Shown here: piece by piece, positions 36,474 through 58,072 of the stretch | Position numbering within the stretch: the stretch's first letter is position 1 | Layout: each line of letters opens with the position of its first letter | Notes under the pieces: generated by a model | The model's database searches: none | What the model saw: the letters and a program-made list of their open reading frames with translations, nothing else | What the model was told of the DNA's origin: nothing | Made by a program: the position numbers and the translations under genes | Source: an uncultured Verrucomicrobiae bacterium | Lineage (GTDB): Bacteria > Verrucomicrobiota > Verrucomicrobiia > Palsa-1439 | DNA length: 64,000 nt | Reading direction: 5' to 3' | NCBI GenBank assembly: GCA_963712025.1 | Contig: CAVQGJ010000002.1 | Coordinates: 131,005-195,004 of the forward strand

Positions 36474-39071
36474 ATGAGCGGTAGTAGCCTCCAGCGGGCC
36501 GTGCCGGCCAATCCGACGGGATCTCAGCCACCCGCCGCCGGCCCTAAATCTTCACACAGGTCGAAAGTCTTGCTGGGTCAGGTCCAAAAGGAGAACCCGG
36601 AATTGCGGGCTGAAGACGCGTTTATCGTGCCGGCATGGTTTTCGGAACAGAAAGTATGGTTGCGAGACCCACTGCGCTCGGACAGCTACGTGTACAACTT
36701 CCCGGTTCTCCTCCGCCTGCGCGGGCCACTCAACGAAAGAGCGTTGCGGGGCGGGCTTCAGCAGATCGTACGACGCCACGAAGTGTTGCGCTCCGTCTTC
36801 CGCATCTTGGATGGAGAACTCGTGCAGATTGTCGTGCCCGCCCCAGAGCTGTCCCTCCCGGTCACAGACCTGAGTGATTTGCCCGAGTCCGCGCGCGATG
36901 CGCGAGTGCGGGAACTCGCCCTCGAAGAGGCCAATCGTCCCTTCGATCTGGCGCAAGGCCCGGTGTTTCGTGGCCGGCTCATTCGTCGGACGACAGGCGA
37001 TCACATCCTGCAACTCACGACCCACCAACTCGTGTACGACGAGTGGTGCACGGGCGTCTTGATCCGCGAGTTATCCGCGTCGTATCAAGCGTTCGCAGCA
37101 GGGACGACGCCGACCGAACCGGGCCCGGCGCATCCGTATGGCGATTTCGTGCGCTGGCAGGAGGCGCGGTTCCAAGGCGCCGCGTTGGAATCAGAGTTGG
37201 CCTACTGGAAACAGCAGCTCGACAGCCCGACCGGCTTCCAACACCTGCCAACCGACCACGCGCGTCCGGCGGTGCCCACGCACCGGGGCGCGAGGGAAAC
37301 GGCTGCGCTGCCGGCCGACCTGGCGAACTCGCTGAAGGTGATGAGCCGGCAGGAGCGGGTCAGCCTGTTCATGGTCTTGCTCGCCGGATTCCAGTGTCTG
37401 CTGCACCGTTATTCGAACGACGAGGAGATCGGCGTGGCCTCGTGCGTGGCGAACCGCGCCTTGCTGGAGGTTGAAGGATCAATCGGCCGGTTCGCCAACC
37501 ACACGGTCCTCCGCACCAGTCTGTCCGGGAACCCCAGCTTTCGCGAGTTGCTCAAGCGCGTGCGGGAGGTTGCCCTGAGCGTCTATTCGCACCAGGAACT
37601 GCCGTTCGCCGCAGTGTTGGAGAAGGCGGGCAACGGCTCGGGTCCCACCCGTCACCCGCCATTTCAAACGATGTTCATCCTGCAAAACGCGCCCAAGGAA
37701 ACCTGGCAACTTCCGGGACTGGAGGCAACCTGGCTGCCGCTGTACCCGGGGACCACGACGCATGACTTGATCGTCTGGCTGACGAGCGAGCCCGCGCTCG
37801 AAGTTACCCTGGAGTACAGCACCGACTTGCTCAACGCGGCGACGATGAGACGGATCCTCGACGACTACCAGTCGATCCTGGCGGCAATGGCGAAGGACCC
37901 CGGGGCGCTCGTCAACGCCATACCGATTTCCGCCGCGCCGGTTCCCAAGCCCGATCACGCACAGCCACCCCTCTCAACATCGAGCAACGGCACGAGATCC
38001 GGGGACAACGCTCGCGTCGAATCACGGTTGATCGAACTCTGGGAAGCGGCATTCGGGTTGCATCCAATTCGCGCGGACCAAAACTTCTTCGAACTGGGTG
38101 GAGATTCTCTCCTCGCGGCGCGGTTGTTCACGCAAATCGAGAAAGTCTTCAAGACAAAACTGCCGTTGGCCACGCTCGTGGAGTCGCCCACGATCGGGCA
38201 ACTGGCGGAGATTCTTTCCGCACCGGCAACGCATTCGCCGAGTTCCTGCCTGGTCGCGGTCCAGCCCAAGGGAACGCAGCCTCCGCTGTTTTGCGTCCAC
38301 GGGCACGCGGGCGAAATCTTCTACTGCTGGAACCTGTCCCGATGCCTGGGAATGGACCAGCCGCTTTTCGGGTTGAGGGCCAAGGGCCTCAGCGAGAAGA
38401 CCGCTCATTACACCGTCGAGGAGATGGCCGCCCATTATCTCCAGGAGATTCTCGCCGTTCAGCCACACGGGCCGTATTACCTCGGCGGCTACTGCTTTGG
38501 CGGCCTGGTGGCGTACGACATGGCCCGGCTGTTGAGCGCCCAGGGCGAAACCGTGGCACTCCTCGCCTTGTTCAATACCCCGGCCCCAAGATCCCTGGAT
38601 GGTTGGCCGTTGCAGCAGACGTATCTCACGAAGAGAATCGCCCACGAGTTGCGGAAGCTCGGCGAACTCGGCATCCGCGACAAGCTGGAGGCTCTCGGCG
38701 CGAAGACGGCGGGGCTCGGCCGGCTCGCTCTCGGTACCATCAAGGAAACCGTCTGGAAGATTTCCGTCAAATACCCGCTCGGCCGCGCCGAGAAATGGAC
38801 GCAGCGATTGTTGGACATCCCCGATATCAACATTGCCGCGGCCAAGGCCTACGCTCCCGGTCCCTACCCGGGCCGGGGCATCCTGTTCCTCACGGAAGAA
38901 GCACCGTCGCTCTACAGCATCGACCCGAAGTCCGGCTGGACTCCCCTGATCAAAGGCGGAATCGAGGCGTACGACGTCGAAGGGGACAACATTTCCATGT
39001 TTGACACGCGCTACATCGAGGTCCTGGCCGGGAAATTGAAGTCCTGCATCAACCGCGCGCACAACGCCTAG
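36474..39071 (+). CDS. NRPS condensation-like + carrier + thioesterase-like protein (C*-T-TE*) with atypical catalytic motifs
   Basis: C2 RRHEVLRSVF, C4 YGDFVRW, C5 IGRFANHTVLRT are present, but C3 reads THQLVYDEW. PCP motif FFELGGDSLL. TE region LFCVHGHAGE..GGYCFGG..LALFNT..GDNISMF. Confidence 0.9.
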   Translation: MSGSSLQRAVPANPTGSQPPAAGPKSSHRSKVLLGQVQKENPELRAEDAFIVPAWFSEQKVWLRDPLRSDSYVYNFPVLLRLRGPLNERALRGGLQQIVRRHEVLRSVFRILDGELVQIVVPAPELSLPVTDLSDLPESARDARVRELALEEANRPFDLAQGPVFRGRLIRRTTGDHILQLTTHQLVYDEWCTGVLIRELSASYQAFAAGTTPTEPGPAHPYGDFVRWQEARFQGAALESELAYWKQQLDSPTGFQHLPTDHARPAVPTHRGARETAALPADLANSLKVMSRQERVSLFMVLLAGFQCLLHRYSNDEEIGVASCVANRALLEVEGSIGRFANHTVLRTSLSGNPSFRELLKRVREVALSVYSHQELPFAAVLEKAGNGSGPTRHPPFQTMFILQNAPKETWQLPGLEATWLPLYPGTTTHDLIVWLTSEPALEVTLEYSTDLLNAATMRRILDDYQSILAAMAKDPGALVNAIPISAAPVPKPDHAQPPLSTSSNGTRSGDNARVESRLIELWEAAFGLHPIRADQNFFELGGDSLLAARLFTQIEKVFKTKLPLATLVESPTIGQLAEILSAPATHSPSSCLVAVQPKGTQPPLFCVHGHAGEIFYCWNLSRCLGMDQPLFGLRAKGLSEKTAHYTVEEMAAHYLQEILAVQPHGPYYLGGYCFGGLVAYDMARLLSAQGETVALLALFNTPAPRSLDGWPLQQTYLTKRIAHELRKLGELGIRDKLEALGAKTAGLGRLALGTIKETVWKISVKYPLGRAEKWTQRLLDIPDINIAAAKAYAPGPYPGRGILFLTEEAPSLYSIDPKSGWTPLIKGGIEAYDVEGDNISMFDTRYIEVLAGKLKSCINRAHNA

Positions 39072-39811
39072 CCAATCTCCCACTGGAAACATTGGAACGC
39101 GACGTTGTCGGTTTCGACCGCTGCCGCCCCCAAGTAGCCCGGTGCCGGCGTCAGATGCTCGAGGGTCCAGTGTCGGGAAACATCGGGGTCGTCGAAGGCG
39201 CGCAAAATGGCGGCCGGTTCGCCGGGAGACAAACTCACTTCCACTCGATCCAACCCGTACGACACACCTTCGCCCCGTCCCTTCAGGTACGCTTCCTTGC
39301 GGGTCCAACAACAAAAGAACGCTTCCAACCGCCGGTCGGAAGACAGTGCGCGAAGCTTCTGGAATTCGTTCGGGGAAAAATGGCCCTTCGCCAGATTTTC
39401 AACGTCGATATCCTCGCGGACGCGCTCGATATCGACTCCGATCCTGCGCCCCCGCGCAAAGCCGAAAAGCCCCACGTCCGCGGAATGGGAAACGCTGAAG
39501 CGCGCGGAAGCGGCCTGCGCCCCGCCGTCGAGGCCGGGTTTGCCGAACTTGTCGTAAGTGAAACGGAGTTGGCCCGGTTCGGTTTCCACATACGCCCCCA
39601 ACAAGGTCCGCAACGATGCCCGAGCGGCCATGTACCGCCGGGCATCCACACCGCTCAAGAATTGGCTGGCGCGGGCTCGTTCGTCGGGCGACAGAATCGA
39701 CCGGAAGCCCGGCAATTGCTCCGGCACGAGGTCGAGAGCAACGACCCATAGATGCGCCTCGGCATTGCCCAGGTCGCCCGGCTGTGTGCGGGATGGCCAC
39801 GGACTTGTCAT
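39068..39811 (-). CDS. Sfp-type 4'-phosphopantetheinyl transferase
   Basis: From ATG 39811: ..FSVSHSADVGLFGFA..IGVDIE..WTRKEAYLKGRGEG.. (PPTase motifs). Convergent with the C-T-TE gene; the two stop codons share the palindrome CTAG at 39068-39071. Confidence 0.85.
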   Translation of the reverse strand: MTSPWPSRTQPGDLGNAEAHLWVVALDLVPEQLPGFRSILSPDERARASQFLSGVDARRYMAARASLRTLLGAYVETEPGQLRFTYDKFGKPGLDGGAQAASARFSVSHSADVGLFGFARGRRIGVDIERVREDIDVENLAKGHFSPNEFQKLRALSSDRRLEAFFCCWTRKEAYLKGRGEGVSYGLDRVEVSLSPGEPAAILRAFDDPDVSRHWTLEHLTPAPGYLGAAAVETDNVAFQCFQWEIG

Positions 39812-39915
39812 GGTTGGATCCTCTCTATACCATTGACCTGACCGTGAGAGAAAGGTTAGAAGTCGCTCCGGTCGTAGCGGATGAAGGGGCGAAGGCAATC
39901 AGCGATACGAGATTC

Positions 39916-41164
39916 ATGACGATGCGCGACGCGGCATCGCCGTGGCACCACGCGTTCCGCAGGTGGGCCAGGTCATCGGTGCTTGTCATGGCTGCCGTGT
40001 TGGTCATCGGGCTGGGAGTGGTGACCGTCTATCGTGCCGCCTACTCGCCCGATCACCGGTCTGATTTCACCGTGTATACCGCCGCCGGCGATGCTGCTCT
40101 CGCCGGCGCGGACCTCTACAAGGCGCAAAACCCCCGCAGGTTATCCTACGTGTATCCGCCTCCGTTTGCCATCCTCATGGTCCCATTCTCCCTGCTGCCA
40201 GTGTCCCTGGGTTCGCTCGCGTGGTATGTCCTCTCGGTGTTGCTTACGTTCTGGTCGCTGCGAATGTGCGTCGCCATGGTGCAAGAGGAGCGGCGCTTCG
40301 ACGGCGATACATTCTGGATGGCGGTATTGGCGGCCGTGCTGGTGCTGCCGTGGTTCATCCAGGGAACGGCGGAAGGCCAGGCAACATTGTTGATGTCGTG
40401 GCTGGTGGTGGCGGCGTTATATTGGCAGACCAAGAACCGTCCTGATCCTCGGCGCAACCTGTCTGGCCGGCGCAATCCTGGTGAAAGTGTTCCCGGCAGT
40501 GTTGCTCGCCTATTTCGGCTGGCGTCAGAAGTGGCGGTTTGTCGTCGCCACGCTCGTGCTGGTTGTCATCGGCGCCCTCGTGCCACCCGCCATGGTATTC
40601 GGCTGGAGCAGAACCTTGACCTACTGGCGCGAATGGGCCGCCGTGGTCGGAGGGCCATCGCTAGGCAACGAGCAGCAGCGTCGCGGAAGTCCCGTGGACG
40701 GTCAGTTGCTCAGCCCGTACAAGGTGCGAAGCCAGACGTTGGAGGCCGTTTGCTGGCGGCTGACGGGCGCCGGGCACGCGCGGGAGATCGCCGTGACGAC
40801 CGCCGTCGCCATGCTGTTGATCATCGGGCGCATCGGATGGCGGTCGCAACCGCAGAGCGAATCCCTGATCGTGTCAGCGATATTGGTCTGGATGATCCTG
40901 GCGGCGCCACTTTCGGAGTTTCATTATCTCCTTGTCTTATTGCTCCCAATGATGGCAATGGTCTTTGTGGCAGTCCATGAGCCGGACGGGGTGACCCGCT
41001 GGCTGGTGCGCGTGACGTTGGCCGTGTTTGCCGTGGCCAGCCTGCTGACGGTGGGGTTTGTGCCGCTGCAGCAAATGGGGCTGCTGTGTTGGGCAATGAT
41101 CGGGTTGTGGGGCGTGCTGTTGACGGTTGTGGTCCGTCAGGCACGAATGAACGGTTCGGAATGA
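39916..41164 (+). pseudogene. GT87/DUF2029-like polytopic GT-C glycosyltransferase with an apparent frame change near 40435-40445
   Basis: ATG 39916: MTMRDAASPW.. followed by TM segments. DFTVYTAAGDAALAGADLY..YVYPPPFAILMVP is the PimE/DUF2029-type N-terminal loop. The sequence continues in frame 2 (..LILGATCLAGAILVKVFPAVLLAYFGW..). Confidence 0.65.
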
Positions 41165-42069
41165 CCCGTGTGGCTGGCCGGCGACGCCCAGGCCGATCCA
41201 CGCGGGAAACAGCAAGGAGGGTTATGCGCCAGGTGAAGGATCAGGGCCAGAGTCAGATCACCATGCCGTTTGCCGACGAAACGATGGTACACGATGACAG
41301 CCGCGGGAGCGGAACCGATTCACAATGGTTCGGTTCCCTCGTTTCCACGCCGATTTCGCTGGTGCTGCCGATGTTCAATGAAGGTCCGGCCGTCGACGTC
41401 ACGTTGAAACACGCGATCGAAGGTCTCGAACGCAAGTTCGCGGATTTCGAGATTGTTGTGGCCGACGACGCCAGCACCGACGGGTGCGCCGAGAAAGTGG
41501 AACAGTGGACCCGCAGCGACCCGCGAATCCGACTGGTGCGCCTCCCGCACAACCAACGATTTGGGGGCGCGCTGTGCGCCGGTTTCCAGGCCGCTTCGAA
41601 AGATTTTCTCGTGTACACCGATTTCGATCTGCCGATCCGGTTGGACAGCCTGCCGCGCCTGCTGGAAGCGTTTTCGGACGCGGATGTGTTGACCGGTTAT
41701 TCCGATGCGGGCGCCAAATACGCCAATTGGAAATCGAGGGTGATCTCCCTCGGCTACAATTCGATGGTGCGCGCGTTATTCGGGTTGCGGCTGCGCGACA
41801 TCAATTTCGGATTCAAGGCGGTGCGGCGGTCGGTTTGGGAGAAAATGCGGCTCCGTTCCCGCAGCCCATTTGTCGATGCCGAGTTGTTCGTGCAGGCCGA
41901 GCACCTCGGCTACCGCGTGAAAGAGGTCCCCGTGCCCTTTGTGCAACGGCAGTTGGGAGCGTCCCACATCCGCCGACTGGATGTCATCGCCGCCACCATG
42001 TTCGACATGGCGAAACTGCGCCTGACGTTGTCGCGCCGGCTGGGGCGGCGCGCCGACCCCCGCGCCTAG
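41161..42069 (+). CDS. GT2 glycosyltransferase, polyprenyl-phosphate sugar synthase type (Dpm1/ArnC/GtrB-like)
   Basis: ISLVLPMFNEGP..FEIVVADDASTDG..YTDFDLP (DxD). ATGA overlap with the preceding GT-C gene. Confidence 0.85.
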   Translation: MTRVAGRRRPGRSTRETARRVMRQVKDQGQSQITMPFADETMVHDDSRGSGTDSQWFGSLVSTPISLVLPMFNEGPAVDVTLKHAIEGLERKFADFEIVVADDASTDGCAEKVEQWTRSDPRIRLVRLPHNQRFGGALCAGFQAASKDFLVYTDFDLPIRLDSLPRLLEAFSDADVLTGYSDAGAKYANWKSRVISLGYNSMVRALFGLRLRDINFGFKAVRRSVWEKMRLRSRSPFVDAELFVQAEHLGYRVKEVPVPFVQRQLGASHIRRLDVIAATMFDMAKLRLTLSRRLGRRADPRA

Positions 42070-42070
42070 A

Positions 42071-42892
42071 TTGTTCGTGAAGCTCCTGATCGTCAACGCC
42101 GACGATTTCGGGCTCGACCCGGCCGTCAACGCCGCAATCACAAAAGCCCACACCGACGGTCTGTTGACCAGCGCCAGTTTGTTGATCGCCGCGCCTCATG
42201 CGGCGGAGGCAGTCGAGTTTGCCCGGTCCCACCCGGAACTTGGTGTCGGCCTTCATCTTTGCCTGGTGGACGGTCGCTCTGCGGCGCTTTCGGATAAAAT
42301 CCCCGCGCTGGCAACCGAGGCGGGAGAATTGCCGTCGAGTCCGTTCGCTCTCAGCGCCCGATTGTTGTCCAACAAGAAACTGGATACAGACATCGAAATC
42401 GAACTGCGGGCGCAAATCAGCCGGTTCATGGCCACGGGTCTGCGTCCGACCCACCTCGACACGCACCAGCATATGCACTTGCACCCGCGTGTGTTGGCGG
42501 TTGTCACCCGTCTGGCGCGCGAGCACGGCATCACCTTCATCCGCGCCCCGGTCGAGCCCCTCTGGCCGGCGATCCACTGCGGCTGGCAACGGTTGCCGCG
42601 GAAACTTGCCCGCTGGACGATATTCGCTGCGCTTGGTTCGTGGACGAAGCAACAACTGCGCCGCCAGGGCTTTCATACGGTCGATCGCGCGGTCGGCGTG
42701 CTTGACCCCGGGCATCTGACCGAGCCGTTCCTCGCGTCGTATCTCCCGGAATTGCCGGACGGACTCACGGAAATGTTCTTCCACCCCGCCGACCGCCCGG
42801 CCGAACCCCTGCTCCGGATGCAGCGCGGCTACGAGCACGCCGCCGAATTGCAGGCCCTCTGCAGTCCGCGCCTGCGGCAAGCTCATCAATGA
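42071..42892 (+). CDS. YdjC/ChbG/HpnK-family carbohydrate deacetylase
   Basis: KLLIVNADDFGLDPAVN and LDTHQHMHLHP are metal-site motifs of the YdjC family. Start is TTG 42071 or GTG 42077; it lies 2 nt after the GT2 stop. Confidence 0.85.
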   Translation: MFVKLLIVNADDFGLDPAVNAAITKAHTDGLLTSASLLIAAPHAAEAVEFARSHPELGVGLHLCLVDGRSAALSDKIPALATEAGELPSSPFALSARLLSNKKLDTDIEIELRAQISRFMATGLRPTHLDTHQHMHLHPRVLAVVTRLAREHGITFIRAPVEPLWPAIHCGWQRLPRKLARWTIFAALGSWTKQQLRRQGFHTVDRAVGVLDPGHLTEPFLASYLPELPDGLTEMFFHPADRPAEPLLRMQRGYEHAAELQALCSPRLRQAHQ

Positions 42893-43085
42893 GTCCGGGA
42901 TTCATCTCACCAATTTTCGGGAGTTGTCACTCCCCGGCTCCTGACTTCTGACTCCCGTTGCCGCCATCCACGGCGATTCGCATCCATGGTTCGCCGTTCT
43001 GTGGTTGACAGCTACTGTGCAGCGGACAAAAATCGGTACCGTAAAAATAGCCGCGCTGGCACCCAACTCGACGCCCAAGCATGAC

Positions 43086-43799
43086 GTGAAAAAGAATTCT
43101 GTGAACCTGAAGGCACTACTATTCGGTCTTGGCTTCTCCCTGCTGCTGGTTGAACAAACGCTCCACGGCCAGCAAGGCGATGTTGACCGTAATCGACTCG
43201 CCGAACTCCGCGCCAACGCGGAAACAGGCGATGCCAAAGTCCAGAATGAACTGGGCCTCCGCTATGCCAACGGCCAGGGCATAACGACGAATGTGGCGGA
43301 GGCGGTGAAGTGGTTTCACAAGGCTGCCGACCAGAATTTCGCCGCGGCTGAATTTAATCTGGGCGTCTCCTACGCCACCGGCCAGGGCATAACGACAAAT
43401 GTGGCGGAGGCGGTGAAATGGTTTCGCAAGGCCGCCGACCAGAATCTCGCCAAGGCCCAATTCAATCTGGGCCTCTGCTACGAGGAAGGCCGCGGCGTGA
43501 CCAAAGATGAGGCAGAGGCGGTGGCATGGTTTCACAGAGCCGCCAGCCAGAATCTCGCCGTGGCTCAATACCTACTGGGCGACTGCTACGCCAGGGGCCG
43601 CGGCGTGACGAAGGATGAGACGGAGTCGGTGAAATGGATCGCTCTGGCGGCGGCGCAAGGCATGGCGGAAGCGAAGGCGGACATTCCCTGGATTGAAAGC
43701 CACGTGCCGGAGAAGCAAATAGCGGAGGGGAAACAGCGGGCGATGGATTGGCTCGAAAGGCAGCGGAGGATGTCCTCCACAAGCGATTTCAATCCTTGA
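43086..43799 (+). CDS. secreted Sel1-like repeat (SLR) protein
   Basis: GTG 43086 gives the signal peptide (M)KKNSVNLKALLFGLGFSLLLV. Five units of ..A.(K)W(F/I).KAA.Q....A.(F/Y)NLG..Y..G.G... Confidence 0.8.
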   Translation: MKKNSVNLKALLFGLGFSLLLVEQTLHGQQGDVDRNRLAELRANAETGDAKVQNELGLRYANGQGITTNVAEAVKWFHKAADQNFAAAEFNLGVSYATGQGITTNVAEAVKWFRKAADQNLAKAQFNLGLCYEEGRGVTKDEAEAVAWFHRAASQNLAVAQYLLGDCYARGRGVTKDETESVKWIALAAAQGMAEAKADIPWIESHVPEKQIAEGKQRAMDWLERQRRMSSTSDFNP

Positions 43800-43878
43800 C
43801 TCATTTTTCCCAGCCCCTGTTGCACCCGGCATTTGTGGGGGGGTGCGGCCGGCAACGGAACGTCTCGTCGGACTCGGC

Positions 43879-44925
43879 TTACTGGCGAGCTTGGAGTTGC
43901 GTGAGCGCGCTCCGCGCCTCGGCGTAATCCGGCTTGATCCGCAGGGCCTGCTCGTAGTGCACAATCGCCTCTGGCACCCGGCCCGCCTGCGCCAAAGCGT
44001 TCGCCAGATTGCAGTGCGCCTCGACGGAATCGGGCTTGATCCGCAACGCCCGTTCATAATGCCCGATGGCATCGCTGACCTTGCCCTCCCGCAAGAAGGC
44101 ATTTCCCAAATTGATGTGCGCCTCGGCGTAATCGGGATTGATCCGCAGCGCCTGTTCGTAGTGGTCAATAGCCTCTTCACGCTTGCCGGTGCGATACAAA
44201 GCCAGCCCGAGGTTGCTGTGCGCTTCGGCGTATTGGGGATTGATCCGAAGCGCCTGCTCCAAATGCTCGATCGCTTCCGGCATCCTGCCCAATCTCATCA
44301 AAGCGATCCCCAGATTGTTGTGGGCCGCAGCACTATCGGGTTCGATCCGTAATAGCTGCTCGTAGTGGGCGATGGCTTCGTCGAGCTTTCCCGTTTGCGC
44401 CAACGTCGCCGCCAGATCGTAGTGCGCCTGGGCGTAATCGGGATTAATCCGCAGGGCCTGCTCGTAGTGGGCAATGGCTTCGTCGAGCTTTCCCGTTTGC
44501 GCCAAAACCACCCCCAAACCGGTGTGTGCTTCGGCGTAATCGGGCTTGATCCGCAGGGCCTGCTCGTAGTGGGCGACGGCTTCCCCGATCTTTCCCGCTT
44601 GTGCCAAAACCGCTCCCAGATTGTTGTGCGCCGCGGCGTAATCGGGAGTAATCCGCAGAGCTTGCTCCCAGTGACTGATCGCCTCCGGGAGCCTACCCAG
44701 ACGGGCCAGGGCGAGCCCAAAGTCGTTGTGCGCTTTAGAAGAATCAAGTTTGATCCGCAGGGCCTGCTCGTAGTGCCCTATCGCCTCTTGAATTCTGCCC
44801 GATTGCACCAGGGCATTTCCCAGGTTGATTTGCGCATCGGCCAAATCGGGATAGAGGCGCAGTGCCCGCTCGAACTGCCGAATCGCCTCCTGCACCTGTC
44901 CCGACGCTTGTAGTTGCATCCCCCA
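43879..44925 (-). repeat. in-frame tandem TPR units (about 10 x 102 bp) of paralog B
   Basis: Units of AI.HYEQALRI.PDYAEAH.NLG..L...G...EA are repeated with strong nucleotide-level similarity. Confidence 0.8.
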
Positions 44926-47044
44926 GTCGTTGTCCGCCTCGGCACATCCCTCGACGCTCGCTAACAGGTTAAATGCCACCGAGAAGGCCAGCAGGAGTCC
45001 GTAGCCCCAGCGCAGCACACGCCGCCAGAGCGGTTGACAAGCCATAGCGCGCTCCAAACTCAAGATGCCAACCACCGCCAGCAGTACCAGCGCCGGCACG
45101 AAGTCCACCTCATAGCGAGGGACAACGAAGCGGAACAACCCAAGCGTCAACGCGCACGTCCCAAACAGCAGGGCGACAGTTATCACGAACCCGCGCAAGA
45201 CCGACCTCGCCTGACCCGACCAACCCCGCCACGCCAGCGGCGCCGCCAATGCCAGCCACGCCAGGGGAATGTTGGTCAGCACACCGAAAGCATGTGTGGC
45301 GCGAGGCACGAAAGGAAAACGACCGCTCCAATCCGCCGTCTCAAGAAAATAAGCCCGCAAGTCTGACCAGACATAACGCAAACCGAACTGTTGAACTGCG
45401 AGCTGTGACGCGTGTTGGTCAACATGGTAATGCCAGCCGAACTCAAATGGATTATCGAAACGCAGTTCGTTGTACAGCATCAGCCCCAGTCCGATGAGTG
45501 TGATCGGGAGCGTCGCTGCCGCCAGCACCGCCCACACCTGCCGCCGCTCACGCCACGCTTGGGCCACTGGTACCAGCAGGATAATCGCACCGAACAACAA
45601 ATTTGGTCGCGCCCCCACTGCCAGCCCGTACGCCAGCACTCGCTGCGGCCAGCCATCCCACCCCCGCTCCGTCCCCTGTAACGCACACCAAATGCCTCCC
45701 AGCGCCAGCATCGTCAGCATATACCCGCAACTGATCGCCACTTCCCAAACCTCGCACTGAGCCAAGAGGGGCGGCAGGAATGCAGCCAAGCCAAGCGCCA
45801 GAACGCACGGCGGCCACCACCGCGACGCTGACTTCGGGGAAGTAGCGCCGCCACAGGCCGCGTAGTATCCCCACGCTCGCCAAAAAACCCACGGCGCAAA
45901 AAATCGTCATGGCCTGACGATAGAACAGGTAGTGGCCGGTCAGCGCCACATACGGCCAGAACAGCATCACGGCGGGCGTAACCCCGAAATAAAGGTACAA
46001 CTTGCCCCGGTAATAACTCAGGTCCATCACCCCGTTGGGGCGAAGTAGAGTCGGGGTATAGGGGTCGGCGAGCTGCGCAAGCCCGGGCGGCACTTCTTTC
46101 TTCAGGTTGAGCTGGCCGGCGCGAAAACTTTGCACCAACAAATTGTAGTAGCTGCTGGCCGCATTCAGACTGAGTTGTGTGACAGCCCCTTCGTGGGCCG
46201 TACATGCGTAAACCCCGATAACGAGCAAACACACGGAAGCCAGGACTCCGTGCTGAATCCAGGGAAGTTTCGCTCCGGATGCTTCTGCCTGTTGTCGATG
46301 AGGCTCACCGGGTATGGCCGGTGAGACCTCACCGGGCCGATCTGGCAGCAAGCGCCAAACCCAAGAGAGAGTGAGAAAAGCCAGCCAACTGAGCGTTGCG
46401 GAGATGACAAACGCCACACCGCCAAAACCCAGGCTTCGCCAGATGCGCTCGGCCTTCGTGCAGACGCCAAAGCTGCGCGACGCGAACTCAAAACGATTCT
46501 TCCATTCGTAAGATTCGACAAAGCTGCCCGGATTCACCTCCAGGTATTGCATTGCCCTGGCTTTAAGAATCTGACCGTTCGACGAAGTCAGTCCACGACT
46601 GGCAGCTTCAATGTCTTCCCATTGCCGGATGATGGCAACTTTCTCCGGCGGAAACTTCTTCCGCAACGCCGCCTCGATCTCCTCGGGCTTTGCACCCTCC
46701 GGGTATTCGTCTGTCGTGTTGTACTCTGGAATCTCGACAACAATCTTGTGCTCTCTCTTACCGGGAAAAACATCGAAAACCTTCGCCAACCGTGATTGCG
46801 TGAGAACCGTATGCGCGAAAATCATCATTTGACGACCATCGGGAGACGTCACCGTGTAAAGGGTTCCCTCTGTCTGCTGGCCAAGGCGAAACTGCTCCAG
46901 CAACACGTTGGCCTCGTTGATTTTGGAGGGCTCGTCGCCCGTCGGAGCGCGCCAAACCGAGACCGTCTGCATTAGGAATGCAGTCAAGCCGACAATCGCA
47001 GAGACGACTACCCGCGTCCGGCTACATGGCACAATTATCCTCAT
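43879..47044 (-). pseudogene. membrane-TPR paralog B with a ~258-aa N-terminal extension; one extra nucleotide near 45795-45805
   Basis: ORF 45548..47044 (extension plus ..SSYYNLLVQSFRAGQLNLKKE..DLSYYRGKLYLYFGVTPAV..LWRRYFPEVSV) and ORF 43879..45789 (..CGYMLTMLALGG.. followed by about 10 TPR units) are colinear with the intact paralog C. Confidence 0.7.
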
Positions 47045-47235
47045 GGCAAAGACGCCTCGACTGCGTCGATGACGATTCTAAGCCTGCAAAAAGGATCTGT
47101 CATTGAAGAAACGGCGCATCATTTGGAAGGTCCCGTTGGTTGCACCGTCGGCAAGCCTTCGGCGCGTTTACGCCACCAGCCGGTCCGGGGCGCGTACCGT
47201 TGAACTCGGCTCCAGGGCTACGCTCACGCTTCGGC

Positions 47236-47960
47236 TTATGGGCGAGCTTGCAGTCGCGCGAGCACGCTCTGCGCCTGGATGAAATCGGGCTTGATCCGTA
47301 GCGCCAGTTTTAAATGCTCGATCGCTTCCGGTATCCTCCCCACCTGGCCCAAAGCCACCCCCAGATTGTAGTGCGCGTCCGCGAAATCGGGCTTGATCCG
47401 CAGCGCCTGCTCGAAGTGCTGAATGGCTTCCTCGATCTTTCCCGTTCGCGCCAAAGCGATCGCCAGATCGTCGTGCGCCTCGGCGTAATTGGGATTAATC
47501 CGGAGGGTTTGCTCGAAGTGCTGGATGGCTTCCCCGGTCTTGCCCGTTTGCGCCAGAGTTACCCCAAGATAGTAGTGCACGTCGGCGAAATCGGGGTTGA
47601 TCCGCAGGGCCTGCTCGAAGTGGGCGATGGCTTCCTCGACCCTACCCGTTCGTGCCAAAGTCATCGCCAGATCGTAGTGCGCCTCGGCGTAATCGGGCTT
47701 GATCCGCAGGGCCTGCTCGAAGTGCTGGATGGCTTCCCCGGTCTTGCCCGCTCGCTCCAAGGTTACCCCCAGATTGTTGTGTCCCTCGGCGTGATCGGGC
47801 TTGATCCGCAGGGCTTGCTCTTGGTGCCCAATCGCCTCCGGCAGCTTGCCGAGCTGCATGAAAGCGTTCCCCAGGCACTCGTGAGCGTCGGCGTCATCCG
47901 GGTCGATCTGCAGCGCGTGCTCATACTGCTCGATCGCCTCCTGAAGTCTCCCCGCAGACT
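47236..47960 (-). repeat. in-frame tandem TPR units (about 7 x 102 bp) of paralog C
   Basis: AI.HFEQALRI.PD.A.AH..L...L...G...EA units. Confidence 0.8.
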
Positions 47961-49371
47961 TCAATTTGAGCCCGCGAAGCGTGTCGACCTCGGCGTAATG
48001 GTCGGCGGTCGCGAGCAGATTCAACGCCACCGAGAAGGCCAAGAGCACGCCCCAGCCACCGCGCGCGGCCCGCGGCCAGCCCGGCCGGTCCGCCAGTGCG
48101 CGCTCCAGTCCGAGAATGCCAATCACTGCCAACAGCAGCAGTGACGGCAGGAAGTCCACCTCATAATCGAAGCTCGAGGCATAGAAAAGCCCCAGAGTGA
48201 ACGCGCACGCTCCAAACACCAGCGCTGTGGCCGTCACAAACCGGCGCAAGATCGATGCCGTCTGACCCGACCGACCCCGCCACGCCAGCGGCGCCGCCAG
48301 TGCCAGCCACACCAGCGGAATGTTCGTCAGGATGCCGAAGGGTTGTTTCGTCATCTGTGCATCATAGCCCGCCGGCAAAGGTGGCACGGGGGCTTCATGC
48401 ACGAAAGGGAAGCGGGTACTCCAGCGCGCCGGCTCCAGAAAGTAGCCGCGGAAATTAAACCAGAGAAAATGCGGACTGAAGGCCTGCCGCGCAACCTGCC
48501 GGTCCGTGGCCAACTGGTAGCGCCAGCCGAACTCGAATGGATTATCGAAGCGCAGTTGGTTGTAGAGCATCAGCCCCAACCCAATGAATGTGATCGGGAC
48601 AACCGCCGCTGCCAGCACAGGCCAAATTCGTTGCCGCTCGCGCCACGCCTGGGCCACCGGCACCAGCAGGGCGACCGCGCCGAACAACAGGTTTTGTCGC
48701 GCCGCCACTGCCAGCCCGTACGCCGCACTCGCCGCCGCCAGCCATCGCCACCCCCGCTCCGGCTCGTGTAACGCGCGCCAAATGCCTCCCAGTGCCAACA
48801 TCGTCAACATATACCCGCAACTGCGCGCCACCTGGTAAAAGCTCGCTTGCGTCAACTGCGCCAGGGTACCCGCCGCCAATCCGAGCGCGACCGCGCCGGC
48901 GGCCACCACCCAGACGCTCACCTCGGAGAAATAGCGCCGCCACAGCGCGCACAGCAAGCCCACGCTGGCCAGGAAGCCGATGGCGCAAAATACCACCACG
49001 GCCAGTCGATGAGAAAGGTAGTGGCCGGTCAATGCGACAAACGGCCAAAACAGTATCAACGCCGGTGTCACCCCAAAGTAAACGTAGAGACGGCCCTCGT
49101 AGTAGCTCAGGTCGTGCATCCGGTATGGGGCCGACCGATAGATTTCATTGGCGGCTGGATCGTAGGGGTCGCCGAGTCGTGTGAGCCCGACCGGCACCTC
49201 CTTTTTCAGGTTGAGCTGGCCGGCGCGAAAGCCCTGCACCAATAGATTGTAAGAAGCGTCCGCCGCATTCTCCAAGCCGAACTTCTCCCAATCCCCCGGC
49301 AGGCTCATGTACGCGTCGAGCCCGATGACCAGCGCGCACACGGCGCCCAGTGAGATCCATGCGGTTTTCAT
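47236..49371 (-). CDS. membrane-TPR paralog C, the only intact copy (putative GT-C-type glycosyltransferase with C-terminal TPR domain)
   Basis: 711 aa: about 11 predicted TM segments by eye, a periplasmic loop GDPYDPAANEIYRSAPYRMHDLSYYEGRLYVYFGVTPAL, then about 7 TPR units. The GT-C assignment is architectural inference. Confidence 0.75.
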   Translation of the reverse strand: MKTAWISLGAVCALVIGLDAYMSLPGDWEKFGLENAADASYNLLVQGFRAGQLNLKKEVPVGLTRLGDPYDPAANEIYRSAPYRMHDLSYYEGRLYVYFGVTPALILFWPFVALTGHYLSHRLAVVVFCAIGFLASVGLLCALWRRYFSEVSVWVVAAGAVALGLAAGTLAQLTQASFYQVARSCGYMLTMLALGGIWRALHEPERGWRWLAAASAAYGLAVAARQNLLFGAVALLVPVAQAWRERQRIWPVLAAAVVPITFIGLGLMLYNQLRFDNPFEFGWRYQLATDRQVARQAFSPHFLWFNFRGYFLEPARWSTRFPFVHEAPVPPLPAGYDAQMTKQPFGILTNIPLVWLALAAPLAWRGRSGQTASILRRFVTATALVFGACAFTLGLFYASSFDYEVDFLPSLLLLAVIGILGLERALADRPGWPRAARGGWGVLLAFSVALNLLATADHYAEVDTLRGLKLKSAGRLQEAIEQYEHALQIDPDDADAHECLGNAFMQLGKLPEAIGHQEQALRIKPDHAEGHNNLGVTLERAGKTGEAIQHFEQALRIKPDYAEAHYDLAMTLARTGRVEEAIAHFEQALRINPDFADVHYYLGVTLAQTGKTGEAIQHFEQTLRINPNYAEAHDDLAIALARTGKIEEAIQHFEQALRIKPDFADAHYNLGVALGQVGRIPEAIEHLKLALRIKPDFIQAQSVLARLQARP

Positions 49372-49486
49372 CGTCCCCGCGAGCCTTTCGTCACGAAACT
49401 TCCCTCATTCGGTTGAATAAGCTCTCCCCGTTTGTCAAACGTCAAGTCGAGAATTGGCAATCGGGCCTGCCTTCCCGCTGTGGACG
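49372..49486 (-). promoter_or_regulatory. conserved 5' leader/promoter region of paralog C (shared with paralog D)
   Basis: About 115 bp directly upstream of the start codon align with 52116..52230 (about 85-90% identical by eye). On the sense strand the region contains tandem TTGACgtTTGACA. Confidence 0.35.
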
Positions 49487-49561
49487 ACTTGCGAACCTCG
49501 AGGTTTAACATTCCGAGAGGTGCCGTTGGACTCGGCTCCAGCGCTACCCTCGCGCTTCGGC

Positions 49562-50713
49562 TCACGGGCGAGCTTGCAGTTGCGCGAGCGCGCTCCGTGC
49601 TTGAGTGAAATCGGGCTTGATCCGTAGCGCCTGTTCCAAGTGCCCGATCCCTTCGGCTGTCCTCCCCGCCTGGCCCAAAGCGATCCCCAGATTGTAGTGC
49701 GCTTCGGCATAATCGGGCTTGATCCGCAGGACCTGCTCGAAGTGGGCGATGGCTTCCTCGATCCTTCCCGTTTGTGCCAACGCGATCCCCAGATTGTAGT
49801 GCGCCTCGGCGAAATCGGGCCTGATCCGCAACGCTTGCTCGTAATGCTGGATGGCTTCCTCAAGCTTTCCCGTTTGCGCCAACGCGATCCCCAGATTGTA
49901 GTGCGCCTCGGCGAAATCGGGCTTGATCCGTAGCGCCTGCTCGTCGTGCTGGATGGCTTCCTCGAGCTTTCCCGTTCGTGTCAAAACCGCTCCCAGATCG
50001 GTGTGCGCTTCGGCGTAATCGGGTTTGATTCGTAGCGCCTGTTCCAAGTGCTCGATCCCTTCCGTTATCCTCCCGGCCCGGCCCAAAGCGATACCCAGAT
50101 CGTAGTGCGCTTCGGCGAGATTGGGCTTGAGCCGTAGCGCCTGCTCGTAGTGCTGGATGGCTTCCTCGAGCTTTCCCGTTTTTGCCAACGCGATCCCCAG
50201 ATTGTCGTGCGCCTCGGCGAAATCGGGCTTGAGCCGCAGCGCCTGCTCGTAGTGCTGGATGGCTTCCTCGAGCTTTCCCGTTTGCGCCAACGCGATCCCC
50301 AGATTGTAGTGCGCGTCGGCGTAATCGGGATTAATCCGCAGGGCCTGCTCGTCGTGCTGGATCGCTTCCTCAATCTTTCCCGTTTGCGCCAAAGCCGCTC
50401 CCAGATCAGCGTGCGTTTCGGCGTAATCGGGATGAATCCGTAGCGCCTGCTCGTAGTGGCCGATGGCTTCCTCAATCTTCCCCATTCGCGCCAAAGCCGC
50501 TCCCAGATCGGCGTGCCCTTCGGCGTAATCGGGATGAATCTGTAGCGCTTGCTCGAAGTGGCCGATGGCTTCCTCGATCTTTCCCATTTGCAACAAAGCC
50601 ACCCCCATCTCGATGTGCGCCTCGGCGTAATCGGGATTAATCCGTAGCGCCCGCTGGTAGTGTTCGACCGCCTCTGAGACTTTGCCCGCCTGGAACAATT
50701 GATAGCCCAAGCC
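49562..50713 (-). repeat. in-frame tandem TPR units (about 11 x 102 bp) of paralog D
   Basis: AI.HYEQALRI.PD.AEAH.(N/D)LG.AL...GK.EEA units. Confidence 0.8.
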
Positions 50714-52115
50714 GGTCTGTACCTCGGCATGACGTTCAACGCCCGCCAGCAGGTTAAACGCCACCGAGAAGCCCAACAGCAGACCCCATCCCCAGTGCAG
50801 CGCACGCCGCCGACCCGGCCGGTCAGCCAGCCCCGACTTCGACGTCGGGGCCAGTGCGCGCTCCAATCCGAGGATGCCAATCACGGCCAACAGCAGCAGT
50901 GACGGCAGGAAGTCCACCTCATAGCGGGCAGACGAATCGTAGAAGAGGCCCAAGGTCAAAATGCAGATCGCCGAAAGCAGGGCCACCGACGTTACAAACA
51001 ACCGCAAGACCCGACCCGCCGGTTCCGATCGATCCCGCCACGCCAGCGGCGCCGCCAGCGCCAGCCACACCAGCGGGATGTTCGTCAGGATGCCGAAGGG
51101 TATCCTCGGCCCCAGCGTAACCCGCTGGTGGGGGTGGCATGGCGATTCCCTGCACGAAAGGAGTGCGAGCCGTCCAGCGCACCGGCTCCAGAGAATACAC
51201 CCGGAAATTGAACCAGAGATAGCGAAGACTGAAGTGTTGCCCCGTGTCCATGCGGCACCTCGGCGTGCAACTGGTAATGCCACCCGAATTCGAACGGATT
51301 GCCGAAGCGCAGCGCATTGTAAAGCATCAACCCCAACCCGATGAGTAGGATCGGGATGGTCGCCGCGAGGACTGGAGCGCCCATCTGACGTCCCTCACGC
51401 CGTGCTTGCGCCACGGGCGTCAGCAGGATGACCGCGCCGAACAGCAACGAGGGCCGCGCCCCCACCGCCAGCCCGTAGGCCACACTTGCCGCCACCAGCC
51501 ACCGGTACCTCCGCTCCGGCTCGTGCAACGCGCACCAGACCGCCCCCAGCGCCAGCATCGTCAGCATATAGCCGCAACTGATCGGCACTTCCCATACATC
51601 GGACTGCGACAGCAGCACCGGTACGCCCGTCGCCAAGCCGAGCGCCAGCGCGCAGGCCAGCGACCACCCACACGCTCACCTCGGAGAAGTAGCGCCGCCA
51701 CAACCCACGCAGCAGGCCCACACTGGCCAGAAACCCCACGGCACAGAAGATCGCCACTGCCTGCCGGTGAAACAGGTAGTGACCGGTCAGCGCGGCGAAT
51801 GGCCAGAATAATATCAACGCGGGCGTAACTCCAAAATAAAGATAGAGCCGGCCCTTGTAGTAACTGAGGTTGAGCACCCCGGAATGTCGAACAGACGAGG
51901 GCAGAACGCGCGGGTTAGCGGGTTCCACGAGTACGGGCGGCACCTCTTTTTTCACGCTGAGTTGGCCGGCGCGAAAGCCCTGTACCAACAAATTGTAGTA
52001 AGAGTCCGCCGCATTCGAACTCCCCAGTTCGAGCACCCCCGGTTGGACCACAGACTGCGTATACCCCGATGACCAGCGCGCACACGGCGGCCAATGGGAT
52101 CCATGCGGTTTTCAT
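49562..52115 (-). pseudogene. membrane-TPR paralog D, broken into at least 5 frames (about 4 frame changes)
   Basis: Pieces 51915..52115, 51395..52051, 51085..51636, 50919..51317 and 49562..51283 are colinear with paralog C. Changes lie near 52045-52060, 51645-51660, 51255-51275 and 51100-51125. Has about 11 TPR units. Confidence 0.7.
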
Positions 52116-52230
52116 CGTCCCCGCGAGCCCTTCGTCACGATCCTTCCGTCATTCGGCTGAATAAGCTCCACCCGTCTGTCAAACGTCAAGTCGAGAATTG
52201 GCAATTGGGCCCGCCTTCCCGCTGTGGACG
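52116..52230 (-). promoter_or_regulatory. conserved 5' leader/promoter region of paralog D (copy of 49372..49486)
   Basis: See 49372..49486. Confidence 0.35.
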
Positions 52231-52317
52231 GTTTGCTGACCCGGCGGCTTCAGATTCCGGGCCGGATCAGGATGATCGGCGGCGTAATCGCAGAGCCGCC
52301 AGATGGGAACAGCCGGG

Positions 52318-52716
52318 CTAATGGCTCCATGGATGAGTAATCTTAAGAATGACAGCCAGTATCCACACCAGGATTCCGAAGGCGCCAATAACGATGGCGG
52401 CGATTGCCTTGCCTGAGCCGGTCAGATGGGGATTATAGGCCATTATTTCCCTCGCCTTAAGCGCCTTGTAAATGGCGACTGCCCCAACGACGAAACCAAA
52501 GAAGAAAACGCCTGTAATAGCGCATTTTAACGCTTCGTCTGCCATCTCGCACGGCCGCGGCGTTATCACAGCCGGGTGCTCCTTCCTCGCCGCTGGCACG
52601 CACGCGCTGCAGTATCGCTTGCCCGCAATCACCAGCAAGCAAAAGGCGCAATACGGCTGGCCACACCTTGCACAATTGTCAAGGGCCGATGCGTCTGGAT
52701 GGTTCTTGCATTGCAT
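52318..52716 (-). CDS. membrane protein with N-terminal B-box-like zinc ribbon and two C-terminal TM helices (DUF4190-like)
   Basis: MQCKNHPDASALDNCARCGQPYCAFCL..CSAC, then hydrophobic segments ITGVFFFGFVVGAVAIY and AIAAIVIGAFGILVWILAVIL. Confidence 0.55.
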   Translation of the reverse strand: MQCKNHPDASALDNCARCGQPYCAFCLLVIAGKRYCSACVPAARKEHPAVITPRPCEMADEALKCAITGVFFFGFVVGAVAIYKALKAREIMAYNPHLTGSGKAIAAIVIGAFGILVWILAVILKITHPWSH

Positions 52717-52951
52717 ACTCAGGCTCCTTCGAGGAGCTTCATTCGTGACGGTGACAGATGGGCCCGGCCATCAAACTATATTGGTAAAGTTGGCTCCCCG
52801 CAATACTTGAAAGAAAGAACCTTTCGAGTGGCATTTGAATTGGGCCTTTCCGGTGCTCGGAAGCCACGTTGAATGAACTTGGCGTTTTGCTCGCAATTAA
52901 CTCGCGCGAGGGGATTTCGGTGGATTCAGAAGGGCGTTCCTGCCTGACACG

Positions 52952-53013
52952 GCTTCGTAAAATTCGATTTGCGCCACGCGCTTGACGCGGCGCGACAGGG
53001 TTGGACGTTGGAA
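52952..53013. repeat. 62-nt intergenic repeat, copy 1
   Basis: gcttcgtaaaattcgatttgcgccacgcgcttgacgcggcgcgacagggttggacgttggaaa aligns with 54731..54793 in the same orientation. Confidence 0.6.
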
Positions 53014-53078
53014 ACAATCACCACCGGAACCAAAGGCGCACTTCTGTCAGAGAGGAAAAGTTGATTCGCTGGTGAACT

Positions 53079-53573: not shown

Positions 53574-53871
53574 GGCTGCGTAGGTTAGCAGGCCAAAGCA
53601 AACCGGGCAAGCGCGGTTCGTTCGCGCAAGACTGTTTGACACTGTCCCGTGTCCCGCGCTACACGATGCTCCATGACCAGTTACTACGGCTCCGATGGCC
53701 ACGGAATGTTGCCGCGCGGTTCCCCGATGTTCAATCTCGGTGACGGTGGACGGGCGCGCATCGCAGCAGTGACGCGAACGTGGAAGGACGACCGCGCCGC
53801 CGAATTGCGGCGACGGGGTTATGGCGTGCTGCTGCAAATTGTCTTCCCGCGACCGTTGCGGATCGTATCTA

Positions 53872-54551: not shown

Positions 54552-54730
54552 ACCGCAATGACAATAGCGGGACGTGCGCTCAACCGCAACGCCAAGTCAG
54601 GAGTCGGCAATTACAGGGGACTACGCCGATTGTCACTGCCCTGTATGCCCTCCAGTGCGCCGACGGTGAGGACGTGAACACAGGTGTTCCTTCCGAAAAC
54701 GCCTCTCATAGCCCGTTGCGGATGAAAACA

Positions 54731-54793
54731 GCTTCGTAAAACTCGATTTGCGCCACGATCTCGACGCGGCGCGATAGGCTGGACGTTGGAAAA
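54731..54793. repeat. 62-nt intergenic repeat, copy 2
   Basis: See 52952..53013. Confidence 0.6.
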
Positions 54794-58061: not shown

Positions 58062-58072
58062 GCTGATTTTCT

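Follow-up and report, generated by a model that had tools for sequence, protein, structure and literature searches.

The 64,000-nucleotide (nt) stretch of contig CAVQGJ010000002.1 from an uncultured Verrucomicrobiae bacterium, referred to here in its entirety as the window, carries two sets of putative envelope glycosylation genes side by side. The first, termed the trio, lies on the forward strand and encodes a membrane-bound glycosyltransferase (GT) of the GT-C fold resembling family GT87 (DUF2029), a family GT2 glycosyltransferase, and a YdjC-family carbohydrate deacetylase. The second consists of four paralogs, A to D, on the reverse strand, in which a multi-transmembrane (TM) domain is followed by C-terminal tetratricopeptide repeats (TPRs), and which belong to a large family termed here the TM+TPR family. 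Structure prediction supports a GT-C class A, or GT-C(A), fold for the membrane domain of paralog C, and comparison with related loci suggests that the trio and the paralogs are probably separate modules.

The GT87-like gene (39916..41164) carries a +1 frameshift. It has no intact reading frame, and its two halves lie in different frames: the N-terminal half of the Pfam GT87 profile (PF09594, positions 1-97) matches residues 78-177 of the open reading frame (ORF) beginning at 39916 (E 8e-15; 55.7 bits, cut-off 25), and the C-terminal half (positions 110-237) matches the ORF at 40481..41164 in the other frame (E 1.8e-4; 21.8 bits). DNA alignment with the homologs of two related loci, L082 and L085, placed the lesion at an extra T at 40443 (CGTCC[T]GATCC). 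The repaired product of 415 amino acids (aa) shows 80-85% identity over 99-100% of its length to intact proteins of 412-443 aa named 'glycosyltransferase family 87', and PF09594 is present in 37 of 37 homologs of the protein. The GT2 gene (41224..42069) follows the GT87 stop codon (TGA, 41162-41164) after a gap of 59 nt. Its start is most likely the ATG at 41224, which is preceded by a Shine-Dalgarno sequence (AAGGAGG) and yields a protein of 281 aa, the same length as in relatives. The YdjC gene (42071..42892, 273 aa) begins 1-8 nt past the GT2 stop at 42069, at TTG 42071 or GTG 42077. An earlier note on this DNA had described all three genes as translationally coupled; this holds for the GT2 and YdjC genes, the only pair that abuts, but the 59-nt gap between the GT87 and GT2 genes, with its Shine-Dalgarno site, means that those two are not coupled. 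A Sel1-repeat gene with four repeats and an N-terminal hydrophobic segment lies downstream on the same strand (43005..43799; Pfam Sel1, E 2.1e-42). Pfam matches confirmed the types and positions that the same note had assigned to these four forward-strand genes.

The GT2 protein (Pfam Glycos_transf_2, E 5.7e-24) is of the polyprenyl-phosphate glycosyltransferase type. Its sequence matches in the PDB are the Pyrococcus dolichol-phosphate mannose synthase DPMS (5mlz, 4.7e-15), ArnC (8vxh, 1.8e-13), and GtrB (5ekp, 1e-6), and all of its closest solved relatives load a sugar onto polyprenyl phosphate. Its best NCBIfam match is ArnC, under the cut-off of that model, and it possesses no C-terminal TM helices. 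The YdjC protein matches Pfam YdjC with an E value of 1.5e-67, the NCBIfam HpnK model TIGR03473 with 254.3 bits (above the cut-off of 232.6), and ChbG with 4e-37; its PDB sequence matches are EF_3048 and the chitooligosaccharide deacetylase 7vi8. Based on these matches, it is assigned to the ChbG/NaxD-type deacetylase family.

The four paralogs were located by tblastn with paralog C, their TPRs were counted with Pfam, and their lesions were read from DNA alignments to C. Paralogs B, C, and D are arranged in tandem and A lies apart, all on the reverse strand, as the earlier note had reported. Paralog C (47236..49371) is read in one frame and encodes an intact protein of 711 aa, in which a membrane domain (aa 1-460) is followed by seven C-terminal TPRs; it is the only intact copy. 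The loop motif GDPYDP...HDLSYYxGRLYxYFG that the note had pointed out spans residues 65-100 of C and is a conserved feature of the family. Paralog A (8232..10281; frames -2 then -3; about 5-6 TPRs) is broken by a single 1-nt insertion near nt 391 of C (about 9890 in the window), which lengthens a run of cytosines, and keeps all invariant residues. Paralog B (43879..~46270; frames -1 then -2; 9-10 TPRs) contains a 1-nt insertion that causes a net frameshift near nt 473 of C (about 45810 in the window), a deletion of 34 nt, and a -1/+1 pair in which the second change restores the frame; it carries the substitution D71T, lacks residues 333-335, and has no start codon of its own, so that its frame runs upstream to 47044. 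In the resulting ORF (45548..47044, reverse strand), an unrelated upstream stretch of 250 aa with one hydrophobic segment is in frame with B; it has no Pfam match and no homolog in any fetched locus. Paralog D (49562..52115; 11 TPRs) is recovered as five tblastn segments in frames -3, -1, -2, -3, and -1. At least four frame changes fall within a stretch of about 1 kb in its membrane domain, the DNA alignment shows several indels, and of the substitutions L66P, D68N, D71V, and D87N the last three remove all three loop acids.

The note had called this paralog set partly decaying, which is right and even understates a state in which three of the four copies are broken. Substitutions at family-invariant positions in B and D, together with the deletion in B, mark these two as genuine pseudogenes at the sequence level. 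The frames of B and D shift at almost the same alignment column, which raised the possibility of programmed frameshifting or phase variation. This reading was rejected: the extra base does not occupy the same position in the two genes (GCCGCC[G]TGC and GCTG[G]CCTGC), no repeat tract surrounds either insertion, and B and D are each damaged elsewhere as well. Paralog C looks functional, and no other paralog does, A being broken by one indel. Paralogs A and C are sisters with 87% nucleotide identity in the membrane domain, whereas the remaining pairs share only about 70-73% identity, and most duplications are therefore old.

Residues 1-460 of C were modelled with AlphaFold2 using an alignment (A4) of 125 sequences with identities down to 35%. 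The model reached a predicted local distance difference test score (pLDDT) of 94.1 and a predicted template-modelling score (pTM) of 0.93. A first model from 61 close homologs had a pLDDT of 63.5, and its top 16 Foldseek matches were all GT-C proteins, but weak; the gain came after about 105 more divergent sequences were added. In Foldseek searches of the PDB with the final model, ArnT ranked first (5f15; E 8.7e-4, probability 1.00, TMq 0.48). It was accompanied by AglB (3wak, 7e9s, 5gmy; E 1.6e-3 to 2.8e-3, probability 1.00, TMq 0.46-0.49), Pmt4 (9i5k; E 2.8e-3, probability 1.00, TMq 0.48), yeast STT3 (8agb; E 8.1e-3, probability 1.00, TMq 0.48), and PglB (6gxc, 5ogl; E 1.6e-2 to 0.12, probability 0.97-0.99, TMq 0.35-0.50), and PIG-U (8imx_U, 7wld_U; probability 0.97-1.0) and DPY19 came next. 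Nine of the first 11 matches were GT-C(A) structures (probability 0.97-1.0, TMq 0.35-0.49), comprising seven enzyme structures and the non-catalytic PIG-U twice, and PglB 5ogl stood at rank 13 with a TMq of 0.50. The GT-C reading of paralog C is supported by this high-confidence model and by the prominence of ArnT, AglB, STT3, PglB, and Pmt4 among the best folds, and the membrane domain is predicted to be a GT-C(A) fold distant from any solved member. Fold prediction and Foldseek thus agree with the GT-C assignment of the earlier note. That note had named a transporter-like or O-antigen-ligase-like model as evidence to the contrary; no credible transporter or O-antigen ligase was among the PDB matches, and all non-GT-C matches had a probability of at most 0.2 and a TM-score of at most 0.19.

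The conservation pattern agrees with this fold. In GT-C(A) enzymes, the acidic residues for catalysis and metal binding are located in the first extracytoplasmic loop. In paralog C, helix 1 (aa 2-22) and helix 2 (aa 102-115) are joined by a loop of 80 residues that contains D71 and D87, both invariant in A4, as well as D68, which is conserved in at least 90% of the sequences. The 17 invariant positions are N42, L66, P69, D71, D87, G100, P103, P110, R225, P238, N271, F275, F281, G282, P333, P352, and G418, and S89, the segment W-R145-R146-Y-F, R274, E280, and N306 are near-invariant along with D68. A conserved cluster, YNxLRF..P.EFG, follows helix 249-275 and opens a 70-residue loop, which in the model appears to be placed like the large outer loop that follows TM7 in ArnT and the TMTC proteins (PMC7801869). 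Two loops (363-378 and 423-439) are rich in Arg, with a charge of +4 each, and a third (395-407) is acidic; these charges suggest that the last helix runs from inside to outside, with the TPRs in the periplasm. The model has 12 long helices, and since helix 1 would also run from inside to outside, one of them should not span the membrane, leaving 11 TM helices. Paralogs A to D would accordingly be inner-membrane proteins with a GT-C(A) domain of about 460 aa, a long first extracytoplasmic loop, and a C-terminal TPR array in the periplasm.

The TM+TPR family is large. A word-indexed search returned at least 1,790 family sequences, and an exhaustive search returned at least 4,326 clusters at 50% identity with E<=1e-3, of which 731 reached 1e-30. 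The organism names attached to the listed matches are all verrucomicrobial (Verrucomicrobiia, Verrucomicrobiae, Opitutaceae, and Verrucomicrobiota). The source databases name these proteins 'tetratricopeptide repeat protein' or 'hypothetical protein', or give them pilus-assembly (TadD/PilF) labels, the latter being triggered by the TPRs. Some members have no TPRs, and a few have other C-terminal regions; in P0365, P0402, and P0405 (about 800 aa), the TPR tail is replaced by a long C-terminal region in which no Pfam domain was found, and P0405 alone represents 152 member sequences. Tandem arrays are a property of the family itself, since 20 of 79 metagenomic family loci hold 2-4 copies. Same-strand arrays of three or four members were observed in L116, L122/L127, L150, L142, and L160. 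Residues 1-460 of C have no match in Pfam at E<=10, DUF1736 and PMT_2 included, none in NCBIfam, and none among PDB sequences by phmmer; a 17-sequence family profile likewise found nothing meaningful among PDB sequences. Membership of PMT_2, GT39, or GT83 is thus not indicated by the sequence of paralog C. Because the family fails the sequence tests for both TMTC (no DUF1736) and PMT_2/ArnT, it was filed as a separate new family within the GT-C(A) fold. A literature search combining Verrucomicrobia, GT-C, and TPR returned nothing on it.

The trio is found in relatives of the window. Three loci (L082-L084) carry all three genes, with identities to the window genes of 82% for GT87, 91% for GT2, and 81% for YdjC; the GT2 protein of L082 also has 281 aa. 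A fourth locus, L165, has the operon with a GT87 protein about 51% identical, flanked by a two-component system and a resistance-nodulation-division (RND) pump. In L085, genes for a condensation-thiolation-thioesterase (C-T-TE) protein and a phosphopantetheinyl transferase (PPTase) are syntenic with the window and are followed by GT87 and GT2 only and then by feoAB; YdjC and the paralog array are both absent. Judged from these loci, GT87-GT2-YdjC is a conserved operon in relatives. A scan of GTDB genomes with the YdjC query reached distant homologs only (33-42% identity), close relatives being outside its reach, and the corresponding loci contained no GT87 gene and no TM+TPR family member. An adjacent GT2 gene was present in 10 of 80 of these distant YdjC loci. 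Pfam and neighbourhood analysis of three of them, from Verrucomicrobia (L022, 2035..5196; L025, 6122..10873) and Acidobacteriota (L075, 8297..11868), found one or two PMT_2-type GT-C genes directly upstream of GT2-YdjC. GT2 and YdjC thus recur in such three-step modules with GT-C partners from different families, an indication that the GT-C component may be interchangeable. An ORF of the size of an NAD-dependent epimerase lies upstream of the module in L022 and L025, and Pfam annotates an epimerase only in L025.

A possible pathway for the trio can be drawn from the lipid A hexosamine systems LgmABC and FlmF2/NaxD/FlmK, in which a GT2 polyprenyl-phosphate-N-acetylhexosamine (HexNAc) synthase acts together with a YdjC-family deacetylase and a GT-C transferase. 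By analogy, the DPMS/ArnC-like GT2 may load HexNAc onto polyprenyl phosphate at the cytoplasmic face, and the YdjC enzyme could then deacetylate the lipid-linked HexNAc. After flipping, the GT87-type GT-C enzyme may move the amino sugar to some envelope acceptor; characterised GT87 members use polyprenyl-phosphate sugars. The amino-sugar logic that the earlier note had read into the trio is thus reasonable, given the nearest relatives of the GT2 protein, the conserved operon, and the PMT_2-GT2-YdjC modules elsewhere, and the Lgm/Flm-NaxD scheme with GT87 as a variant transferase is plausible. Because of the 1-nt insertion in the GT87 gene, the trio is either inactive in this sequence or the extra base is an assembly error.

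The linkage between the trio and the TM+TPR family was assessed in five trio-type loci and the 79 family loci (888 kb in all around the family members). The 6-10 kb around the trio in L082, L083, and L165 and around the GT87-GT2 pair in L085 contained no family member, nor did the about 2 kb of contig past the trio in L084. The Joint Genome Institute (JGI) sample that contains L082 (3300044801) also contains a family gene with 82% identity on a different contig, L001, where no trio is present; this gene is flanked by a MacB/RND-type transporter and an RCC1-repeat gene, and a Wzm/Wzt ABC transporter accompanied by GT4 and GT9 genes lies at a distance of about 4 kb. Small ORFs with weak Pfam matches to PEP-CTERM, the exosortase-sorting signal, were seen beside the family member in L001 (9643..9759) and near the trio in L082 (1532..1975), which may be coincidence. 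In tblastn searches of the 79 family loci, a GT87 homolog was found in one (L141; 44% identity, 5.6 kb away), weak GT2 matches in three, and YdjC and Sel1 in none; clustering of all neighbouring ORFs of these loci gave no partner family in more than five. As no Sel1 homolog was found in the trio loci either, the Sel1 gene of the window is best described as a neighbour with no conserved linkage to either module. The earlier note had proposed a system in which one lipid-linked donor feeds several TPR-guided transferases. That proposal drew on adjacency, and adjacency is not conserved: TPR-bearing GT-C genes accompany the trio in 0 of 5 trio-type loci, and GT87 and YdjC are found in one and none of the 79 family loci, respectively, an outcome that the note itself had named as contradicting it. 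The trio and the TM+TPR family are therefore probably two independent modules that lie side by side, connected only by their adjacency in this one genome. This negative result matters, as adjacency in one genome was no evidence of a shared pathway.

The combined reading, with paralog C as a GT-C(A) enzyme of a new family and the two modules as independent, is considered somewhat more likely than not, and several points weigh against it. The likeness of C to solved GT-C enzymes is at the level of the fold, with TM-scores of about 0.35-0.5 and E values of 1e-3 to 0.1. That D71 and D87 belong to an active site is inferred from the model, and the count of about 11 TM helices, with a periplasmic first loop and periplasmic TPRs, is likewise derived from model helices and charge distribution. 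When 17 members were scanned singly, DUF6541 was matched in two (E 0.0015) and PMT_2 in one (E 0.011), and four further members matched DUF6541 with 22-25 bits, under the cut-off of 29; hhalign of the family against four PMT_2 proteins gave a probability of 5.5%. The synteny sample comprises the five trio-type loci and 79 family loci from peat and soil metagenomes, and no donor-synthesis gene is consistently near family members in it. Finally, GT-C enzymes often draw on donors whose synthesis is encoded at other sites of the genome, so a functional link in trans is compatible with the lack of synteny. One alternative, the model of the earlier note, is that the trio makes one lipid-linked amino sugar for both the GT87 enzyme and the TPR-bearing paralogs, each of which would modify a different, possibly protein, acceptor. 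The adjacency of the genes in the window, the GT-C folds of GT87 and the paralogs, both of a kind that uses lipid-phosphate sugars, and the GT87 homolog in L141 are consistent with a shared donor, but this adjacency is absent from 5 of 5 trio-type loci and 78 of 79 family loci, no YdjC gene lies in the 888 kb around family members, and sample 3300044801 has the trio and the 82%-identical family gene on separate contigs. The family also has thousands of members with several copies per genome, whereas the trio search gave 37 homologs, and three of the four paralogs are broken in the window together with the GT87 gene, all of which makes a shared donor unlikely. It is slightly less probable still that the TM+TPR proteins are non-enzymes, in which a TPR scaffold or chaperone is anchored by a GT-C-like module that binds a lipid or substrate, as in PIG-U, a component of the glycosylphosphatidylinositol (GPI) transamidase. 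Such a role would suit the presence of PIG-U among the Foldseek matches, the lack of linked donor-synthesis genes, and the lack of detectable sequence similarity to catalytic GT-C families. However, the best-ranked folds are enzymes, and two Asp residues in loop 1 and Arg, Asn, and Glu residues in other predicted outer loops are invariant across the 125 diverse sequences, which is the pattern of catalytic GT-C(A) proteins; moreover, the conserved positions lost in D, the most decayed copy, include all three loop acids.

Two further alternatives concern the trio and the lesions. The GT2 and YdjC proteins might serve hopanoid side-chain modification of the HpnI/HpnK type, leading to glucosaminyl-bacteriohopanetetrol, instead of a lipid-carrier pathway. 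The score of the YdjC protein above the TIGR03473 cut-off points in this direction, but that model is only a 'hypothetical equivalog' model, the GT2 protein best matches ArnC, DPMS, and GtrB and has no HpnI match, and the conserved partner is a GT87 GT-C enzyme. In addition, neither shc nor hpnH/G/I/J adjoins the trio in the window, L082-L085, or L165, and a hopanoid role is the least probable of the alternatives weighed here. The single frameshifts in GT87, A, and possibly B could, on the other hand, be assembly indel errors, in which case the trio and two or three paralogs would be functional in the organism. Two unrelated genes of the window, a second copy of glycoside hydrolase family 28 (GH28) shifted near 30255 and an SRAP gene with its MCGRYTL N-terminus in another frame, are also frameshifted, and about 10 indels occur in the 64 kb; assembly indels may thus account for the lesions of the single-lesion genes GT87 and A. 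The GT87 insertion lies beside a GATC site (CC[T]GATCC), and that in A extends a run of cytosines in a copy that keeps every invariant residue. Other long genes of the window are intact, among them ORFs of 1494, 865, 710, and 646 aa and complete UxaC and GH88 genes. Furthermore, the clustered frame changes and lost acids of D, and the D71T substitution, deletion, and missing start of B, are unlike indel noise. Assembly error is accordingly a minority explanation, albeit one that carries more weight than the shared-donor, non-enzyme, and hopanoid alternatives, and B and D continue to be read as pseudogenes.

The remainder of the window contains several unrelated loci. Directly upstream of the trio is a set resembling nonribosomal peptide synthetase (NRPS) genes, which encode an adenylation-thiolation (A-T) protein (33138..35078), a cytochrome P450 (35084..36352), and the C-T-TE protein (36474..39071); an Sfp-type PPTase gene (39068..39898, reverse strand) is divergent from the trio. 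The frameshifted GH28 copy (29863..31067, reverse strand; frames -3 then -2) is one of two GH28 genes in a pectin/uronate utilisation locus that also comprises GH88, UxaC, UxaE, KduI, a short-chain dehydrogenase/reductase (SDR), a major facilitator superfamily (MFS) transporter, and 2-keto-3-deoxy-6-phosphogluconate (KDPG) aldolase, and the same locus encodes the 1494-aa protein, which combines Ig, PKD, and pectate-lyase regions. At 15942..18420, a gene resembling an extracytoplasmic function (ECF) sigma factor is accompanied by ORFs of 161 and 477 aa for which no Pfam match was found; these three genes share 76-80% identity with those at 2954..5429 of L082 and 2..2405 of L084. The trio follows about 5 kb downstream of them in L082 and L084 and 21 kb downstream in the window, where the pectin and NRPS loci intervene. 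The region at 52000..62000 has a guanine-cytosine (GC) content of 53-57%, compared with about 61% elsewhere in the window. It contains a large serine recombinase gene (59673..61298), a gene for a helix-turn-helix (HTH) protein, the frameshifted SRAP gene (53872..~54600), a fragment encoding a pro-kumamolisin activation domain (56920..57465), and a number of ORFs for which Pfam gave no match, and it looks like a decaying integrated element that abuts paralog D.

With respect to function, the TM+TPR proteins are most likely, by analogy with TMTC1-4 and TfpW, polyprenyl-phosphate-sugar-dependent glycosyltransferases in which the TPR domain would select the acceptor; the fold prediction and the conserved residues carry this assignment, and the donor, acceptor, and topology are inferred. 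A more specific proposal can be put forward only tentatively, namely that the family is a new CAZy-level GT-C family and a bacterial counterpart of TMTC and TfpW, comprising TPR-guided periplasmic protein O-glycosyltransferases whose copies and arrays reflect acceptor diversification, with D-like copies as turnover debris. If this is true, the acceptors of the expanded family could be, for example, many secreted or PEP-CTERM proteins of Verrucomicrobia. GT-C proteins with TPRs are already familiar, and it is useful to state that the new element is a large, wholly unannotated GT-C family. Its assignment to GT-C, with invariant loop aspartates, turns a large unannotated block (at least 4,326 clusters) into testable candidate glycosyltransferases of the envelope or of proteins.

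Compared with known systems, the trio follows the same GT2 + YdjC-family deacetylase + GT-C gene logic as the lipid A hexosamine systems of Bordetella (LgmABC) and Francisella (FlmF2/NaxD/FlmK), and NaxD is a YdjC-family deacetylase (per reviews). As in those systems, a YdjC deacetylase gene is encoded with a GT2 gene, and the pair is adjacent both in the window and, as a conserved feature, in L082-L084 and L165. Contrary to the Lgm and Flm systems, which use an ArnT-like GT83 transferase, the trio has a GT87-type transferase (PimE family), whose gene is frameshifted in the window, and its GT2 protein differs from ArnC and GtrB in having no C-terminal TM helices. A literature search combining DUF2029 and YdjC returned nothing on this module. 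GT87-GT2-YdjC may thus represent a variant, with a different transferase family, of the amino-sugar modification pathways behind cationic-peptide resistance in pathogens.

For the TM+TPR family, ArnT (5f15), the best structural match to C, represents the ArnT/PMT_2-type GT-C enzymes (GT83/GT39). ArnT and, by prediction, C both carry conserved Asp residues in the first periplasmic loop, whereas ArnT differs in its 13 TM helices and in a periplasmic domain that is not made of TPRs, and it shows no significant sequence or profile similarity to C. TfpW, the pilin D-arabinofuranosyl transferase of Pseudomonas aeruginosa, has about 650 aa and resides in the inner membrane, with its N-terminus in the cytoplasm and its C-terminal TPRs in the periplasm; 11 TM helices are predicted, the first periplasmic loop bears a conserved acidic motif, and ArnT is the best structural template (bioRxiv 10.1101/2020.04.19.049825). 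Paralog C is predicted to have the same layout and likewise matches ArnT best, a likeness that is drawn from the description of TfpW and not from its sequence. The acidic motif is DDx in TfpW and DPYDP...HD in the TM+TPR family. Furthermore, the TfpW gene is located immediately downstream of its acceptor gene pilA, whereas the TM+TPR family has no conserved neighbour in the 79 loci, among which pilin genes were not searched by name. The eukaryotic TMTC1-4 proteins (GT105) possess 11 TM helices and lumenal TPRs; ArnT is the closest structure to their GT-C fold, and TM7 is followed by a large outer loop (PMC7801869). They are enzymes of the endoplasmic reticulum that use dolichyl-phosphate mannose (Dol-P-Man) and are defined by a DUF1736 loop and detectable PMT_2/ArnT homology, in contrast to the bacterial TM+TPR family and paralog C, which matches neither profile. 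On the other hand, TMTC1-4 comprise several paralogs with different acceptors and non-cytoplasmic C-terminal TPRs (PMC7801869), and the family described here likewise forms several paralogs, with a predicted TM and TPR layout of this kind. The TM+TPR family would offer a bacterial system in which to study the TPR-guided acceptor selection proposed for the human TMTC enzymes.

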